From: a bacterium
GTDB taxonomy: Bacteria > Patescibacteriota > Minisyncoccia > UBA6257 > GWB1-50-10
Direction of reading: 5' to 3'
NCBI GenBank assembly: GCA_021814165.1
Contig: JAKAIX010000001.1
Coordinates: 77,623 to 141,622, forward strand
DNA length: 64,000 nucleotides
The position numbers and the translations under genes are program-made. Each line of letters opens with the position of its first letter. Position 1 is the stretch's first letter. The notes below the pieces were generated by a model. It did not search any database and was not told the DNA's origin. It saw nothing but the letters and a program-made list of their open reading frames with translations. This document shows, one piece after another, positions 9,639 to 16,435 of the stretch.

Positions 9639-9713
9639 TGGTGGGCATGGAAGGAATCGAACCTTCGACCTCTGTCTTATCAGGACAGCGTTCTACCACT
9701 GAACTACATGCCC
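9639..9713 (-). tRNA. tRNA-Ile (anticodon GAT), CCA encoded
   Basis: Reverse complement is GGGCATGTAGTTCAGTGGTAGAACGCTGTCCTGATAAGACAGAGGTCGAAGGTTCGATTCCTTCCATGCCCACCA. All four arms pair and the anticodon loop is CTGATAA. Confidence 0.9.
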
Positions 9714-9975
9714 GTATTCTTTATAAATCCATCTTTTACTATCTTATCAATATAATCCTTTCGCTTTAGTTTTTTCAACCTCAATTCTATTTTCCTGGCA
9801 ATCTACAAGCTTGGAAATTTTTGAACAAAAACTAATTTTTTTTCGTCCATTCTCCTTGTTGTTTGAGTATGACCGTGCTGGTGTTGATACCATCTTCTAT
9901 AAATATCATTAGTACTTCCAATGTACAATCTATTGTTCGTACCATCTTTAATAATATAAACAAAGCCATCCATAG

Positions 9976-10051
9976 GCGTTCTACCATCCCGACGCGCTTC
10001 GCGGTCGGGACTCCGACCCCCGAAGGGGCGTCGGAGTTGAACTACATGCCC
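9976..10051 (-). pseudogene. Partial tRNA-Ile copy (positions 1-26) with a 50-nt double-hairpin insertion in the D-loop
   Basis: Reverse complement is GGGCATGTAGTTCA + [ACTCCGACGCCCCTTCGGGGGTCGGAGT CCCGACCGCGAAGCGCGTCGGG] + ATGGTAGAACGC. It then diverges with no anticodon or T arm. Confidence 0.7.
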
Positions 10052-10079
10052 AAATTACGATTTTGAGTGTAAGTGAATT

Positions 10080-10828: not shown

Positions 10829-10895
10829 GGCTCTCTTCCTATTATAGCGTACTCGGCTTGAACCCGCATCCGTCTCATCGTACACTATACGCACT

Positions 10896-10953
10896 GGGCC
10901 GTTAGCTTAGCTTCCGCCAGAGGCGGACCAGCCTTTGGCTGGGGTAAGAGCGC
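10896..10953 (+). pseudogene. Partial tRNA-Ala copy (positions 1-26) with a 32-nt double-hairpin insertion in the D-loop
   Basis: GGGCCGTTAGCTTAG + [cttccgccagaggcgg accagcctttggctgg] + GGTAAGAGCGC. The first 15 nt match the tRNA-Ala at 11196 exactly. Confidence 0.7.
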
Positions 10954-10959
10954 AACCTT

Positions 10960-11205
10960 ATGTTCTCTGTCTATGTCTTAAAAAGCCTGAAAAACGGGAA
11001 GAGATATATTGGGTATACGAGCAAACCTCCACAAGTAAGGTTAAAAGAACACAATAATGGTTCGAATGCATTCACCAAAAATAACAAACCATTTGTGTTG
11101 ATATATTCCGAACAGTATAGTAATAAAAGAGAAGCCATCCAGAGAGAGCACTTTCTGAAATCAGGGAAGGGGAGAGAATTTCTGGATAACAGTTTGGGCC
11201 GTTAG
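10960..11205 (+). CDS. Small standalone GIY-YIG nuclease-family protein (81 aa)
   Basis: VYVLKSLKNGKRYIGYTSKPPQVRLKEHNNG...NKREAIQREHFLK is a GIY-YIG/URI domain. Its TAG stop codon lies inside the 5' end of tRNA-Ala. Confidence 0.75.
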   Translation: MFSVYVLKSLKNGKRYIGYTSKPPQVRLKEHNNGSNAFTKNNKPFVLIYSEQYSNKREAIQREHFLKSGKGREFLDNSLGR

Positions 11206-11268
11206 CTTAGTTGGTAGAGCGCCTCGTTTGCAACGAGGAGGTCACCGGTTCGAATCCGGTACGGTCCA
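11196..11268 (+). tRNA. tRNA-Ala (anticodon TGC)
   Basis: GGGCCGTTAGCTTAGTTGGTAGAGCGCCTCGTTTGCAACGAGGAGGTCACCGGTTCGAATCCGGTACGGTCCA. G3:U70 pair present, anticodon loop TTTGCAA. Confidence 0.9.
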
Positions 11269-11412
11269 CATACAAAACCCCCGACCCCTGGTCTAGAAAA
11301 CCCTCGGTTTCCCACAGCCTTCCGACACAGGGGTTTTGCTTTTATTTTGCGAGGCAAAAAATGCTGAATCCGAATGGGTTTTTTGAGAGTATTGTAGGTT
11401 GAATCGCAACCA

Positions 11413-11913
11413 TTGATAAAATCCCGTTCTTGTTGGATAATTTTACAAACGATATACATGGGTAATTTCAATCTGTTCAATCTTGAAGTGCATTTTAAGC
11501 CAAGTTTCTCGTTACGCTTTCGAAAAAAGCGCCTTGATAAGGTATCAGCAAATATACTTTTTATTGATGATTCAGATTGCCCTGTGGTTGAAAACTTGAC
11601 CAAGGCTGGTTGGTCGGTAAAAAAGATCGACGATATCGTAAATGTTCAAGACGAAGAAATAAAACGAGCCGACATAGTTTTTGTAGATTACAAAGGTGTT
11701 GGTATCGACCTTTCAGAGGAAGAACAAGGAATTAGTGTGATAAAAGCTATTAAGAAAGCATATGGTGATTCCAAGAGAGTTATCCTATATTCCGCATACG
11801 GACATTTTAAGTTAAGCATGAACATGCGCGTCGCCGATAATCAGATGTCAAAAAACTCAGATACATTTGAATTTATCTCTATGATTGAATCTGAGTTAGA
11901 GAAAATTAAATGA
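11413..11913 (+). CDS. Single-domain response-regulator receiver (CheY-like) protein
   Basis: REC landmarks: NILFIDDSD (acidic pocket), ADIVFVDYKG (phospho-Asp), KRVILYSAY (Ser/Thr), HFK (Lys). AT-rich island. The true start may be an internal Met at 11458. Confidence 0.6.
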   Translation: MIKSRSCWIILQTIYMGNFNLFNLEVHFKPSFSLRFRKKRLDKVSANILFIDDSDCPVVENLTKAGWSVKKIDDIVNVQDEEIKRADIVFVDYKGVGIDLSEEEQGISVIKAIKKAYGDSKRVILYSAYGHFKLSMNMRVADNQMSKNSDTFEFISMIESELEKIK

Positions 11914-12878
11914 CATTTTATCGAAGAAAAAATACGGGAGGTGAGGTTACCGCTACCAACATTCCGGAAAACTTTGATATATCTAGCTACACCACAAAAG
12001 AATTTAATTTAGGAGATGGAAAAATTGAGTTCATCACTAACGACTTAGAACTAGTAAAAAGATCAAAAATTTTAAGGAAAGTTGTTGAAACAAGCGGTCC
12101 AATAGTTATTTCTATTCAAGATAATTTTATCAACCAAATAAAAGAGCACTCTCACACTCTAAAGAGACTCCAGGGGCAATTGAAACAAAAAATAGAGGGG
12201 GTTGTAGATTGCAAAAAATTTCCTAACAAGAACCACTCTGAGCAACGAGAGATTGTGTCTAATGAGATTAAGTCAGATGTTAAAACAATAGCTGATGTAT
12301 TGATTTATTTACGGAAAAGAATACTTGAAATAGATGCACATATTGCTAGTTTCGAAATTATTCATATGGGAGAAGAAATTCAACTTGATATACGACCGCA
12401 TAACATTCGAAATATCATTATTAACATCCTATATGCCTTTGAAGATGAATCCCGGGGCACATGGATTAAACCTAGTTTCCAATTCACGAATGAGCTCGCC
12501 GAAACGAATAAAATCAAACTAGACTATAAAACAGTTAATACAGCTTTCTATAATTTCTTTGATAACGCAATTAAATATATAAAACCGAGCTCTGATATAA
12601 GATTCTTTCTTTCATTTCAGGATGGAGAATTTAAATTATTAATAACGATGATCAGCTTGAGAATTGAACAAGAAGAACTAGCAAAAATATTTGACTTGAG
12701 ATATAGGGGTAAAAATGCTGAAAAAGTTGAAGGATTGGGTATAGGAATGTATGTCGTCAAGAAAGCGCTAGAATTAAATAGATTTTCTATCAAAGTCAAT
12801 CCTGATTACAGTCACATGGAACATTTTCAAGGTAAGCAATATATTCTCAATCAGTTTGAAATTTCTGGGAGGGTTTAA
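11910..12878 (+). CDS. Cytoplasmic histidine kinase (HisKA + HATPase_c) with ~90-aa N-terminal domain of unknown function
   Basis: H box EHSHTLKRL, N box FYNFFDNAIKYIKP, G2 box GLGIGMYVVKKALELN. Start overlaps the receiver stop (ATGA). Confidence 0.65.
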   Translation: MTFYRRKNTGGEVTATNIPENFDISSYTTKEFNLGDGKIEFITNDLELVKRSKILRKVVETSGPIVISIQDNFINQIKEHSHTLKRLQGQLKQKIEGVVDCKKFPNKNHSEQREIVSNEIKSDVKTIADVLIYLRKRILEIDAHIASFEIIHMGEEIQLDIRPHNIRNIIINILYAFEDESRGTWIKPSFQFTNELAETNKIKLDYKTVNTAFYNFFDNAIKYIKPSSDIRFFLSFQDGEFKLLITMISLRIEQEELAKIFDLRYRGKNAEKVEGLGIGMYVVKKALELNRFSIKVNPDYSHMEHFQGKQYILNQFEISGRV

Positions 12879-12889
12879 TAATCGATATT

Positions 12890-13435
12890 ATGCCACCCTC
12901 AGTTGTAAAAACAATTCGTGATCTCGTCTATTGGGAATACGCAAAACTCATCACTGGGCGAGCAGTAGGTGATCGAAAAAATCGGCCATTCTGCATGCAC
13001 ACGTTTTTAAAACTAAGAAATGGGCAAATTCACCCTTCGACAATTCTTCGAGAAAATCATTTACTCGTCGAAGAGGGGACTGAAAAATGTACCTACTGTG
13101 GTCATTATAAGAGTGGACTAGAGTGGGAACATATAATACCAACTTCTCGTGGAGGACCAGACACTATCGATAACCAGGTCTTAGCTTGTAGACGGTGCAA
13201 TGCGGAAAAAGGCGACAAGTGTTTATATGATTGGTATGGAGAAGAAAGAAAATACGAAATCCCTCGTCTAGCTTGGGGTAAATATTTGAAGGTTATCTAT
13301 GATTTACATGAGCAAGTGGGTACTCTCGATTCAACTTGTTCAAGAACAAATGATCTAGATTGTGTTCTTAAAAGGGGCAGAAATAAGGAAAAATCATGGA
13401 AACGGTTCTCATCACGGGAGCGAGCAGGGGAATAG
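12890..13435 (+). CDS. HNH endonuclease
   Basis: CTYCGHYKSGLEWEHIIPTSRGGPDTIDNQVLACRRCNAEKGDK is a canonical HNH/His-Me finger with two CxxC pairs. The C-terminal ~15 codons read through an SDR gene remnant and may not be genuine. Confidence 0.7.
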   Translation: MPPSVVKTIRDLVYWEYAKLITGRAVGDRKNRPFCMHTFLKLRNGQIHPSTILRENHLLVEEGTEKCTYCGHYKSGLEWEHIIPTSRGGPDTIDNQVLACRRCNAEKGDKCLYDWYGEERKYEIPRLAWGKYLKVIYDLHEQVGTLDSTCSRTNDLDCVLKRGRNKEKSWKRFSSRERAGE

Positions 13436-13483
13436 AAAGAGCAATTGCAAAAAGTTCTCAATCTATCAAGGCCGGGCCTCGAT
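13395..13483 (+). pseudogene. Remnant N-terminus of a short-chain dehydrogenase (SDR), truncated
   Basis: METVLITGASRGIERAIAK is an SDR Rossmann TGxxxGxG-like start. It stops after 29 codons, inside a palindromic repeat. Confidence 0.55.
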
Positions 13484-13487
13484 AGAG
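13458..13487. repeat. Palindromic repeat family A (degenerate copy)
   Basis: ctcaatctatcaaggccgggcctcgatagag; compare the perfect copy at 52105. Confidence 0.7.
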
Positions 13488-13499
13488 AAGTAGATAATT

Positions 13500-14363
13500 A
13501 TGTCAGAAAAACAATTTATTAATTCTCTGCCATATATCAGTAACCCTGTGGAAGAGTTCAGGGATTTCGAGTTTGTGAGCTGGGAGAAGGAGATCTACCC
13601 GAAATTCAAGGGTATTTTAAAGAAGCAGGAAATCGACTTCTTCGTGAATATTATTACCGGTAAGAAATTGAAGAGTATTCTCGATTTGGGCGTCGGTGGG
13701 GGATTGGAGCTGGGCGGCATCATCAAAACGTTGAACGGGATGGATTACAAGCTAAAAACAGTTGAAGCGAACGAAGTAAACGATGAGTTCATCATGCAGG
13801 CAAGCACCTACTTCTACAGGAACAACATCCATGTGCTTATGCATAAAGGAAACTGGATCGATCTGCCATACGCGACACCGCCGTACGATCATCAGTTCGA
13901 TTTCGTGTTTTTGACGGGTAATTCTCTTTCATACCTTGGCGGAGGATCCCGCGAATATACGAAAGACGGAATTACAAGTATTATCGCGAAATTCAGTAAA
14001 CTGATTTCGAAAAACGGCTATCTTTTTATAGATACAAGAAACTTCGACTATATTCATTCACTTATGAACCTCCCCATCAAGGAAGTCGTGAAGAATTTCC
14101 ATTTCGACTACACCGTATACTATCACGGGAGTGAAAAGGATATTATCGTCTTCCCGGCATATATCAGCGATACTATTGTTGTGCTTCACTATTATGACGT
14201 GAAGCGCAAGGTATGGGGTAAACTTGATTACTTCCCGCTCTACGAGCATGATATGGTCGAAATTTTGAGCCATCATTTCGAAGTCGAGAAAATCTATCAT
14301 GACTTCTCCGAAGAAGCGAAGAAAAAGAGTATTTTCATCCAATACCTTGCAAGGAAGAAATAG
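13500..14363 (+). CDS. Class I SAM-dependent methyltransferase
   Basis: Motif I ILDLGVGGGLE and motif III-like FDFVFLTGNSL. A TPPY tetrapeptide is present, but overall the protein looks more like a small-molecule methyltransferase than a DNA methyltransferase. Confidence 0.6.
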   Translation: MSEKQFINSLPYISNPVEEFRDFEFVSWEKEIYPKFKGILKKQEIDFFVNIITGKKLKSILDLGVGGGLELGGIIKTLNGMDYKLKTVEANEVNDEFIMQASTYFYRNNIHVLMHKGNWIDLPYATPPYDHQFDFVFLTGNSLSYLGGGSREYTKDGITSIIAKFSKLISKNGYLFIDTRNFDYIHSLMNLPIKEVVKNFHFDYTVYYHGSEKDIIVFPAYISDTIVVLHYYDVKRKVWGKLDYFPLYEHDMVEILSHHFEVEKIYHDFSEEAKKKSIFIQYLARKK

Positions 14364-14499
14364 AAGCGCCTCAAAATACGTGCATATGCATAAATTTTGA
14401 GGATACTCTCTTTTCTGTCCGATTCTTATCATACAAACGTTTTCGTGATACGATTACAGAATTATGAGTTTTGTAGGTGAGATTTCCGTCTGATCCACA

Positions 14500-15066
14500 A
14501 TGAAACGAGAAGAGAAGATATTGCTTGCAGGAGCCAGTTTCTGGTGGCTGGGGGAGGGGTTGTTCGGACCGCTCTTCGCCGTATTTGCGGGAAGAGTGGG
14601 TGGCGATCTTCTCGACATATCCTGGGCCTGGGCAATCTATCTCTTAGTGACCGGGGTCCTGGAAATCTTCGTGGGCAAAATCTCCGACAAGATAGGCCAT
14701 GAGAGAATGATGATTGCGGGTTATGCTCTAAATGCTATCTTCACATTCTGCTATCTCTTCGTCCATACGCCAGCAGCGCTCTTCGCGGTAGAAGCCGGCC
14801 TCGGCGTTGCACTCGCACTTGCAAATCCCACATGGGATGCACTGTATGCAAAATACGAAGATCGACGTCGGGCGGGTCTTATTTGGGGAGTGGAACATGG
14901 TACCGAGGAAATTATCACCGGCATTTCCATATTTCTCGGCGGCCTCATCGTAAATTACTATTCGTTTACGACACTTTTCATTATCATGGGTATCATTCAA
15001 ACTATGGGAACCATTTACCAAAGTAAAATACTTCTTGTTCGTTCCAAGGCAACTTCTGAAGGTTAA
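14500..15066 (+). pseudogene. MFS transporter N-terminal half (TM1-6 only), likely truncated gene
   Basis: MFS motif A GKISDKIGHERMMIAG. Homologous in layout to the N-half of the full MFS at 23193-24449. Ends after ~6 TM. Confidence 0.5.
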
Positions 15067-16117: not shown

Positions 16118-16435
16118 ATGACAATTCGTGAACTACAGAAGAGAGTAGGTGATTTTTCAAGAGAACATCACCTCGACTCAAATCCGGAGTATAAAATACT
16201 GGATACAGTTTCGGAACTCGGGGAGGTCTCAAAGGAAATACTTAAGATGACGGACTACGGCAAAAAGAGTATGGTGTTCAAAGATGAAGTGGGGCTGGAA
16301 CTCGGAGATCTATTATATTCGGTCGTTACCATCGCAAACTCGTTGAATGTCGATTTGGAAGAGGCGGTGGAAAATGCGCTCAAAAAGTACGGGGAACGCT
16401 TAAAGAAAGGCAGCCCGGGATCGGAAAATGATTAA
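16118..16435 (+). CDS. MazG-like nucleotide pyrophosphohydrolase
   Basis: Paired EExxE/ELGDLL helices (ELGEVSKEI...ELGDLLYSVVTIANSL). Confidence 0.7.
   Translation: MTIRELQKRVGDFSREHHLDSNPEYKILDTVSELGEVSKEILKMTDYGKKSMVFKDEVGLELGDLLYSVVTIANSLNVDLEEAVENALKKYGERLKKGSPGSEND

Follow-up and report, generated by a model that had tools for sequence, protein, structure and literature searches.

Gene content and base composition of the locus

Four close-packed open reading frames on the forward strand were identified at the locus in the window, meaning the whole 64 kb stretch of DNA that was analyzed, and the gene calls of the source genome agree with the initial annotation of four tightly packed, co-directional genes. 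Gene A (11458-11913, + strand; 151 aa) was assigned to the receivers of the PDC-M43A family by PADLOC, AF2, and Foldseek, and is followed by gene B (11910-12878, + strand; 322 aa), coding for a histidine kinase-like protein of the PDC-M43B family (PADLOC, Pfam, and AF2/Foldseek). Downstream are an HNH endonuclease gene (12890-13435, + strand; 181 aa; Pfam HNH 5.5e-12) and a class I SAM-methyltransferase-like gene (13500-14363, + strand; 287 aa; NCBIfam GlySarMtaseBact and PDB GNMT). Three-frame translation also revealed the 5'-end remnant of an SDR gene (13396-13485, + strand), consisting of 29 codons followed by a stop (METVLITGASRGIERAIAK...) and identified solely by its TGxxxGxG Rossmann motif. 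The start of gene A had been placed at the TTG at 11413 and was corrected to the ATG at 11458; 11413 belongs to the -35 hexamer of a sigma-70-like promoter candidate (TTGATA-17-GATAAT; 11413-11441, + strand) just 5' of the gene. This candidate matches the consensus at 10/12 positions, and the count of sigma-70-like sites in the region was not above that in shuffled sequence.

Base composition separates the first three genes from the fourth. The GC content was 0.33 at ~11.3-13.0 kb, lower than anywhere else in the 64 kb, for which the mean was 0.476 (sd 0.041), and GC3 values were 0.35 for A, 0.29 for B, 0.32 for HNH, and 0.556 for the methyltransferase. The sharp GC drop originally placed at 11.4-14.4 kb is therefore a real dip but confined to ~11.3-13.0 kb, the methyltransferase having a host-like GC3. 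The low-GC stretch begins ~150 nt past a tRNA-Ala(UGC) gene (11196-11269, + strand) identified by ARAGORN and Rfam (tRNA, 72.9 bits), with Rfam returning two tRNAs only and nothing further. This tRNA gene had been suggested as an integration site; it was rejected as a demonstrated attachment site because no integrase was called from 5 to 18 kb and a downstream copy of the tRNA-Ala 3' end (at least 14 nt) that would mark a far border was not found. Among the features of tRNA-integrated islands, the locus shows deviant composition beside a tRNA gene, with integrase and direct repeat both missing, and the tRNA-Ala gene adjoins the low-GC block on its left but cannot be called a demonstrated site of integration.

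On its right-hand side, the low-GC block is delimited by the SDR remnant. Of the decay products said to flank the island, an imperfect palindrome (14358-14413; 28-nt arms, 71% complementary) and a half-length MFS transporter gene (14500-15066, + strand; 188 aa; Pfam MFS_1 2.6e-18, profile positions 4-166 of 347) were present as described, but the SDR remnant lies inside, between the HNH and methyltransferase genes. The palindrome sits at the stop codon of the methyltransferase gene and possibly forms a terminator hairpin; it was not among the sites called by the terminator scan.

A stand-alone receiver and a histidine kinase-like protein with an unusual ATP-binding motif

No receiver was detected in A by sequence, either by the Pfam scan (Response_reg) or by a PDB search using a profile built from A homologues, for which the lone PDB sequence match, the Hia adhesin, was spurious. 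Receiver identity was settled by the fold search: the AF2 model (pLDDT 85) adopts a (beta-alpha)5 fold and the top 50 matches in the Foldseek PDB search were all response-regulator receivers. Among 63 homologues, residues D37, D38, D77, and K132 were invariant and position 112 was S or T. Judged by fold and motifs only, A is thus a predicted receiver, consistent with the CheY-like single-domain receiver initially proposed. The protein has ~30 disordered N-terminal residues and carries no membrane helix and no output domain. It matches the PDC-M43A HMM PDLC04646 of PADLOC at 8.7e-31, with PDLC04644 and PDLC04645 also matching. The A-profile search gave 1,240 matches, and most of the named sources were Patescibacteria. 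An N-terminal membrane helix was identified in 4/4 plasmid copies and in two of the Patescibacteria loci, as well as in 9/120 of the close homologues listed; ~90% of the closest homologues listed, mostly from Patescibacteria, are devoid of the helix like the window copy.

Gene B matches the PDC-M43B HMM PDLC04647 of PADLOC at 1.2e-43 (protein residues 33-319, profile positions 52-340 of 347) and Pfam HATPase_c at 8.6e-9, and its AF2 model resembles HK853/WalK-type DHp+CA structures (Foldseek). The protein comprises a small N-terminal beta domain (residues 1-45; four beta strands, no TPR match), a DHp domain bearing His82, and a CA domain that contains the N and G2 boxes. H82 sits in helix 52-98 of the model and is conserved in 127/127 cluster representatives, in which N219, K222, Y223, G275, and G279 are also invariant and G277 is present in 126/127. 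Pfam, fold, and conserved residues accordingly bear out a soluble histidine kinase-like protein with H, N, and G2 boxes, but the G1 box is non-canonical: DxGxG is absent, and in an alignment with SrrB and PhoR, M247-x-S249-x-R251 occupies the place of their D-x-G-x-G. Opposite the G1 Asp in this alignment, M247 is a Met in 125/127 representatives, and S249 is found in 127/127. This replacement of the canonical adenine-binding G1 Asp leaves the kinase activity of B not assured. Loss of G1 is no proof of a dead kinase, AgrC being a precedent for an active kinase that lacks the G1 Asp; the AgrC/HPK10 type differs from the B family in having an Asn at this position and a peptide-sensing membrane domain, compared to the Met and the soluble architecture of B. 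The exchange of a near-universal adenine-binding Asp for Met throughout the B family raises a clear biochemical question.

A-B is a mobile, patchily distributed pair of the PDC-M43 family

The stop codon of A and the start codon of B overlap by 4 nt (ATGA at 11910), as had been noted at the outset. This arrangement was maintained in all loci of the small neighborhood sample, with A and B adjacent, on the same strand, and with overlapping stop/start codons in 14/14 independent A-B loci, and no third gene was conserved with the pair among them. Four of the 14 were located on proteobacterial plasmids. The pair is flanked by IS3 and Tn3 on an E. coli plasmid, is among the few genes of a 6.2-kb ColE1-like plasmid, and adjoins integrases at some loci, while HigBA modules, IS elements, and integrases were found near plasmid-borne copies. 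Other neighbors include R-M enzymes and single-gene defense entries, and in L127/L128 the pair is inserted in a type I R-M operon with the order HsdM-HsdS-A-B-HsdR; the window copy itself is not embedded in such a system. The E. coli plasmid copy had no match in complete E. coli genomes, and a genome-contig search with B as a single protein returned one true relative. Metagenome and viral scans found generic histidine kinases only, none with an A partner, which the B-family HMM scored at 95 bits or less compared to ~300 bits for true family members; these scans added no neighborhoods to the sample. Nothing was found by a viral scan for A or by tblastn of B against phage records. The copies on plasmids, beside integrases, and between hsdS and hsdR, together with the low GC content of the window copy, indicate that A-B is patchy and mobile.

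PDC-M43 was the only PADLOC model matched by A and B. The PDCs are 145 phage defense candidates of PADLOC-DB v2, defined by embedding in BREX, DISARM, or type I R-M systems (Payne et al., bioRxiv 10.1101/2024.01.29.577857); no paper naming PDC-M43 was found in the literature. The window proteins match both HMMs, their genes lie side by side on one strand with translational coupling, and a relative was found inside a type I R-M operon. The window copy differs in coming from Patescibacteria (CPR) and in an A protein without the N-terminal helix of the proteobacterial plasmid copies, and in nothing essential. The window A-B is a further member of this already listed candidate phage defense family. 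The PADLOC assignment, the plasmids and integrases, and the embedding between hsdS and hsdR agree with the proposal in the initial annotation that the pair is defense-associated and not a housekeeping two-component system.

A non-immune role for A-B, as a regulatory or addiction (toxin-antitoxin-like) phosphorelay stabilizing mobile elements or as an orphan signaling pair acting on a chromosomal target, was considered unlikely. Such a role would fit the plasmid copies beside HigBA modules, IS elements, and integrases, the lack of an effector domain, and the fact that the defense role of PDC-M43 is that of a candidate. It does not readily account for a pair found within a type I R-M operon and repeatedly adjoining R-M and defense genes, and without a DNA-binding output domain A is unlikely to act as an ordinary transcriptional regulator.

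The HNH gene as a separate downstream neighbor

On balance, the locus is likely a composite of the mobile A-B pair of PDC-M43, a separate solitary HNH gene, and a host-like methyltransferase of small-molecule type, neither of the latter being a conserved partner. The HNH endonuclease call itself stood, and the motifs CxxC, WEHIIP, DN, and CxxCN were invariant among the homologues. The search yielded 200 homologues, of which the 120 listed were 53-83% identical and mostly 160-170 aa in length; homology to the family ends at ~residue 162 (~nt 13376), and the last 19 codons of the window gene read into the SDR remnant. The family is large and highly conserved, and its genes are solitary, widely dispersed, and found in unrelated contexts. 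A-B was present at 0/4 other HNH loci and, conversely, HNH adjoins A-B in 1/14 A-B loci, in the window only. A viral scan for the HNH family and tblastn of HNH against phage records gave nothing beyond one distant HNH.

The initial annotation had suggested a four-gene, kinase-to-nuclease architecture. This was rejected because none of the other 13 A-B loci contains a homologue of the HNH or the methyltransferase gene, and the linkage of the four genes elsewhere on which the suggestion depended was not found, A-B being likewise absent from the four other HNH loci. The HNH protein is probably an independent, solitary nuclease whose gene is co-transcribed with A-B here. Its co-acquisition or functional coupling with A-B is conceivable in the window genome given the low GC3, the gap of 11 nt between the B stop and the HNH start, and the lack of a terminator-like site between them.

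A generalized form of the initial reading would be an immune system of three or four genes whose effector is swappable, in which the helix-less phospho-A activates in trans the nuclease or protease encoded directly downstream (HNH here; elsewhere NYN, trypsin-like, or DpnI-like). A co-directional gene starts <200 nt past B in 8/14 loci, five of these eight code for nuclease or protease domains (HNH, NYN, Trypsin_2, DpnI, and HsdR), and neither A nor B carries its own effector domain; the HNH gene, with its short gap, shared low GC3, and no intervening terminator-like site, would fit the same pattern. The downstream genes are mutually non-homologous, however, and three of them are stand-alone PADLOC defense entries (NYN, HEC-09 2e-19; Trypsin_2, PDC-S45 1.7e-35; DpnI, mREase_II 4e-112), which also speaks against dedicated effectors of A-B, while HsdR belongs to the type I operon that hosts A-B. 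Moreover, the trypsin and DpnI neighbors follow A proteins that retain the membrane helix, A-B has no downstream partner in L129 and four plasmids, the closest relative (70% identity for B) offers no more than an NYN gene in convergent orientation, and the HNH family is solitary elsewhere. A swappable effector is therefore improbable. The same low likelihood is given to the version restricted to the helix-less PDC-M43 of Patescibacteria, in which phospho-A would activate in trans a receiver-less downstream effector (HNH here; NYN, protease, or small membrane proteins elsewhere). If true, this would be two-component immunity with an effector recruited by protein-protein contact and not by domain fusion, unlike Detocs.

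The methyltransferase resembles small-molecule enzymes

The assignment of the fourth gene as a class I SAM methyltransferase was upheld with weak support. The protein matches Pfam Methyltransf_25 at 0.029 and NCBIfam GlySarMtaseBact at 1.3e-8 over residues 41-284, far under the family cutoff, and the PDB match to GNMT was at 1.2e-3. No DNA-methyltransferase Pfam match and no PADLOC (E <= 0.1) or PHROG match was obtained. The gene is linked to A-B in 1/14 loci, the window only, with no homologue in the fetched loci (other A-B loci and four other HNH loci), and tblastn against plasmids returned nothing. From its sequence, the protein is predicted to be GNMT-like and of small-molecule type, compositionally host-like, and outside the mobile pair. 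A TPPY tetrapeptide was considered as a DNA-methyltransferase motif IV and excluded by its wrong position relative to beta4, being 8 residues past the beta4 'GNW', where GNMT has a loop.

The earlier proposal that HNH and methyltransferase form a compact R-M pair carried with a two-component regulator, suggested by their adjacent, co-directional genes and by the TPPY tetrapeptide, is close to refuted by the whole-length match to Gly/Sar N-methyltransferases, the GC3 of 0.56 for the methyltransferase vs 0.32 for HNH, the SDR remnant between both genes, and the lack of a methyltransferase homologue beside the HNH homologues in the four other loci.

Comparison with Detocs and classical two-component systems

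The A-B pair of PDC-M43 shares the logic of phosphotransfer from histidine kinase to receiver and the defense context with Detocs, and A resembles its stand-alone receiver DtcB. Detocs consists of the three genes DtcA/DtcB/DtcC, all of which are required (Rousset et al., bioRxiv 10.1101/2023.01.24.525353), with DtcC uniting receiver and effector (PNP, REase, TOPRIM, or TM) in one protein and the kinase carrying an N-terminal TPR sensor (bioRxiv 10.1101/2023.01.24.525353). A-B differs in comprising two genes only, in lacking a fused effector, and in that B carries a 45-aa beta domain instead of TPRs. Neither a receiver domain in the HNH protein nor an effector domain in A is present, and the window contains no further match to the A-family or B-family HMMs. 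The locus is thus not a member of Detocs, since it has neither a receiver-effector fusion nor a third receiver protein nor a TPR sensor.

With classical two-component systems such as HK853-RR468 and WalK, B has in common the DHp+CA fold, the His of the H box, and the N and G2 boxes, and A the receiver fold and its DD/D/S-T/K residues. The A-B family differs from these by M-x-S in place of the G1 DxGxG, by the lack of a membrane sensor, by a receiver without output domain, and by its mobile, patchy distribution.

Proposed mechanism of A-B

The mechanism that we infer for the pair as a whole would begin with autophosphorylation of B on His82 upon an infection or stress cue, possibly sensed via its 45-residue N-terminal beta domain. 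The phosphate would then pass from B to Asp77 of A, and phospho-A would constitute the output. For the A proteins of plasmids and a minority of Patescibacteria forms, which are anchored in the membrane through one N-terminal helix, phosphorylation-driven clustering could perturb the membrane and arrest growth, an outcome comparable to abortive infection. The output step is a guess because no effector domain is recognizable in A or B.

Should PDC-M43 prove to be a defense system, it would follow Detocs as the second case of immunity based on two-component phosphotransfer, and be the most minimal of this kind, consisting of a kinase and a bare receiver without a recognizable effector. PDC-M43 is common in Patescibacteria, and the window provides a clean, compact example of it and not a new architecture. 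Residues H82 and M247 of B and D77 of A are testable positions that emerged from the analysis.

Features of the PDC-M43 receiver and kinase-like proteins

The locus is a mosaic of a PDC-M43 gene pair, a solitary HNH gene, a dehydrogenase fragment, and a host-like methyltransferase gene of predicted small-molecule type. The pair, a stand-alone receiver (A; 11458-11913, + strand) and a histidine-kinase-like protein (B; 11910-12878, + strand), is a new copy of PDC-M43, a phage defence candidate family already listed in PADLOC-DB. A matched PDC-M43A (8.7e-31) and B matched PDC-M43B (1.2e-43), and the pair displayed every family feature tested, making it a member of this candidate family. The interest of PDC-M43 lies in the Met that stands for the G1 Asp, the lack of an effector, and its abundance in Patescibacteria rather than in the four-gene architecture proposed in the initial annotation.

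No receiver domain was detected in the sequence of A (151 aa, ATG start) by a Pfam scan or by a PDB search with the A-homologue profile. An AlphaFold model built from 63 homologues (pLDDT 85; >90 over residues 30-151) adopted a (beta-alpha)5 fold whose best 50 PDB matches were all response-regulator receivers, with the signature positions at the ends of the expected strands beta1, beta3, beta4, and beta5. Residues D37, D38, D77, and K132 were invariant in the homologues and position 112 was S (56) or T (7), while in the model the first ~30 residues were disordered and an output domain was absent. By fold and conserved residues, A is a receiver whose phospho-acceptor pocket is intact. An N-terminal transmembrane helix followed by a low-complexity linker and the receiver was present in A of all four plasmid copies and of two Patescibacteria loci; A of the window has no N-terminal membrane helix, as in 111 of the 120 closest homologues listed. 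The A-profile search returned 1,240 matches, and PDC-M43 is abundant in Patescibacteria.

The B model began with a small four-stranded domain at the N terminus (residues 1-45) and continued through a pair of long DHp helices into a CA domain; it matched HK853, WalK, and other kinase cores. B is kinase-like in fold, and its phospho-acceptor His is invariant. Conservation was assessed in 127 full-length cluster representatives (50% identity), where H82, N219, K222, Y223, S249, G275, and G279 were invariant (127/127) and G277 nearly so (126/127). B differs from canonical histidine kinases at the G1 box: in HMM alignments to SrrB and PhoR, M247-x-S249-x-R251 lay exactly opposite D-x-G-x-G, such that M-x-S replaces D-x-G in PDC-M43B (codons 247-249, 12648-12656 in the window; M 125/127, S 127/127) and the family lacks the canonical adenine-binding Asp. 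The H box His, N box, and G2 box are invariant or nearly so despite this change. The loss of G1 was rejected as proof of an inactive B, as AgrC is an active kinase lacking both the DxGxG motif and the Asp (PMC10482373).

Linkage and genomic context of the pair

Fourteen independent A-B loci, confirmed by HMMs built in this analysis, comprised ten from Patescibacteria (window included) and four from proteobacterial plasmids, among them Shewanella baltica pSBAL11701 and E. coli pZ1322MEC0001-2. The initial annotation had left linkage in other genomes to be checked: in 14/14 loci A directly preceded B, its stop codon overlapping the start codon of B. The gene following B was different each time: it encoded the HNH nuclease in the window and, at other loci, NYN (L001), a trypsin-like protease (L005), DpnI (L006), HsdR (L127), or unrelated small proteins (L009, L010, and L132); B was followed by a convergent NYN gene at L011, by an 800-nt gap and then an integrase at L129, and by nothing conserved in the four plasmids. 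No similarity was detectable among the proteins encoded downstream of B across these loci, and three of these neighbors were stand-alone PADLOC entries, namely HEC-09 (2e-19), PDC-S45 (1.7e-35), and a methyl-directed REase (4e-112).

In two Parcubacteria-group assemblies, A-B lay within a type I R-M operon, flanked by hsdS and hsdR (L127, 4923-10386; L128, 2981-8444). This is exactly the 'guilt-by-embedding' pattern that was used to derive the 145 PDC candidate systems (bioRxiv 10.1101/2024.01.29.577857). A small RVT_3-domain ORF lay between hsdM and hsdS in L128 and was absent in L127. At four Patescibacteria loci (L006, L011, L129, and L132), A-B shared a neighborhood, adjoining ftsW, murG, or gltX and in many cases close to a tyrosine integrase, which suggests a recurrent insertion hot spot near these genes other than the tRNA-Ala site of the window. 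A-B is thus a mobile, strictly linked, and translationally coupled pair in defense-type contexts, and the PDC-M43 match, the 14/14 linkage, and the type I R-M embedding bear out the part of the earlier interpretation that regarded the kinase and receiver as a defense-type module; the four-gene architecture and the alternative R-M pair did not stand.

Proposed working of the pair

B would autophosphorylate on H82 after a cue and pass the phosphate to D77 of A, with phospho-A as the output. For the membrane-tethered receivers, it can be speculated that phosphorylation would drive their association, leading to membrane damage or growth arrest as in abortive infection. It is conceivable, if rather improbable, that phospho-A of the helix-less variant instead activates a receiver-less effector encoded directly downstream, which in the window would be the HNH nuclease; this reading gains room from the lack of both a membrane helix and an output domain in A of the window. 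The phosphotransfer proposed for A-B would resemble that of two-component systems and so, broadly, Detocs (bioRxiv 10.1101/2023.01.24.525353), but membership of the latter was rejected as its three-gene set, receiver-effector fusion, and TPR-bearing kinase were all absent from the window locus.

HNH nuclease and methyltransferase genes

The HNH gene (12890-13435, + strand) encodes a member of a ~165 aa family with CxxC, WEHIIP, DN, and CxxCN motifs invariant in 29 homologues. Conservation in this family is unusually high: the 120 homologues listed were 53-83% identical and belonged to Patescibacteria and archaea, and a 45% identical copy was identified on a haloarchaeal plasmid; the family was absent from the phage collections searched except for one distant HNH. 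In the loci examined (window 12890-13376; L014, L016, L019, and L136) it was solitary and often beside restriction enzymes, its neighbors in the four other loci being a type ISP R-M enzyme, a restriction endonuclease, a D5-type primase, or unrelated genes. The family may represent an undescribed single-gene nuclease module. Three unrelated genomes also carried a small MazG-like pyrophosphohydrolase gene (105-116 aa; window 16118-16435, L005 4901-5248, L016 229-579) no more than a few kb from their A-B or HNH locus, adjoining Fic, SLFN-helicase, or type ISP R-M genes.

The methyltransferase-like gene (13500-14363, + strand) product matched Methyltransf_25 weakly (0.029) and bacterial glycine/sarcosine N-methyltransferase over its full length at a sub-threshold level (1.3e-8), its PDB matches were GNMT (1.2e-3), and it matched no DNA-methyltransferase, PADLOC, or PHROG model, pointing to an enzyme of small-molecule type. 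HNH and methyltransferase homologues were each found in 0/13 other A-B loci, and A-B and the methyltransferase were absent from the four other HNH loci. By the initial annotation's own reckoning, the four genes do not form a unit because they are not linked elsewhere, a linkage test that the A-B pair passes, and its alternative of a compact R-M pair fails both by methyltransferase family and by linkage.

Base composition and limits of the insertion

The four co-directional ORFs follow tRNA-Ala(UGC) (11196-11269, + strand) largely as first described, and their transcription as a single unit is plausible since no + strand terminator-like site was found within the block. The start of A previously placed at 11413 corresponds to the TTG of the longest ORF, and the gene call of the genome and all homologue N-termini support the ATG at 11458; position 11413 coincides with the -35 element of a promoter-like site upstream of A. 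Across the 64 kb scanned, GC fell below 0.38 only in 1-kb windows between 11.25 and 13.5 kb (minimum 0.327 versus a mean of 0.476, sd 0.041). The GC3 values of A (0.35), B (0.29), and HNH (0.32) were low, and that of the methyltransferase (0.56) was within the 0.43-0.64 of neighboring host genes, so the AT-rich island proposed for 11.4-14.4 kb holds for only part of the block.

A 29-codon 5' fragment of a short-chain dehydrogenase (SDR) gene (METVLITGASRGIERAIAK..., 13396-13485), carrying its N-terminal Rossmann motif, separates the HNH gene from the methyltransferase gene and so sits inside the island that it was first described as flanking. The HNH protein is homologous to its own family only up to residue ~162 (nt ~13376), and its last 19 codons read into the SDR remnant, which places the probable right end of the low-GC insertion at ~13.38 kb with the methyltransferase gene beyond it. 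Together, the SDR fragment and the 19 extra codons imply at least two separate rearrangements at this site. The tRNA-Ala was not supported as an integration site, as neither an integrase nor a border repeat of its 3' end was found at the locus. Further downstream, an MFS transporter gene (14500-15066; 188 aa) corresponds to half of the Pfam MFS_1 profile and is either truncated or a half-transporter, with no second half found nearby.

GIY-YIG ORFs at tRNA genes

Small GIY-YIG ORFs directly precede both tRNA-Ile (9639-9713, - strand; ORF 9803-9973, - strand, 56 aa) and tRNA-Ala (ORF 10960-11205, + strand, 81 aa; Pfam GIY-YIG 7.5e-16), each on the strand of its tRNA, the stop codon of the latter overlapping the tRNA 5' end. 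In both cases (9639-10056 and 10895-11269), the first 14-16 nt of the tRNA were repeated exactly upstream of the ORF, as TGAACTACATGCCC at 9700 and 10038 for tRNA-Ile and TGGGCCGTTAGCTTAG at 10895 and 11195 for tRNA-Ala. Both arrangements resemble a GIY-YIG cassette that has entered a tRNA gene in its 5' part and restored that part on insertion.
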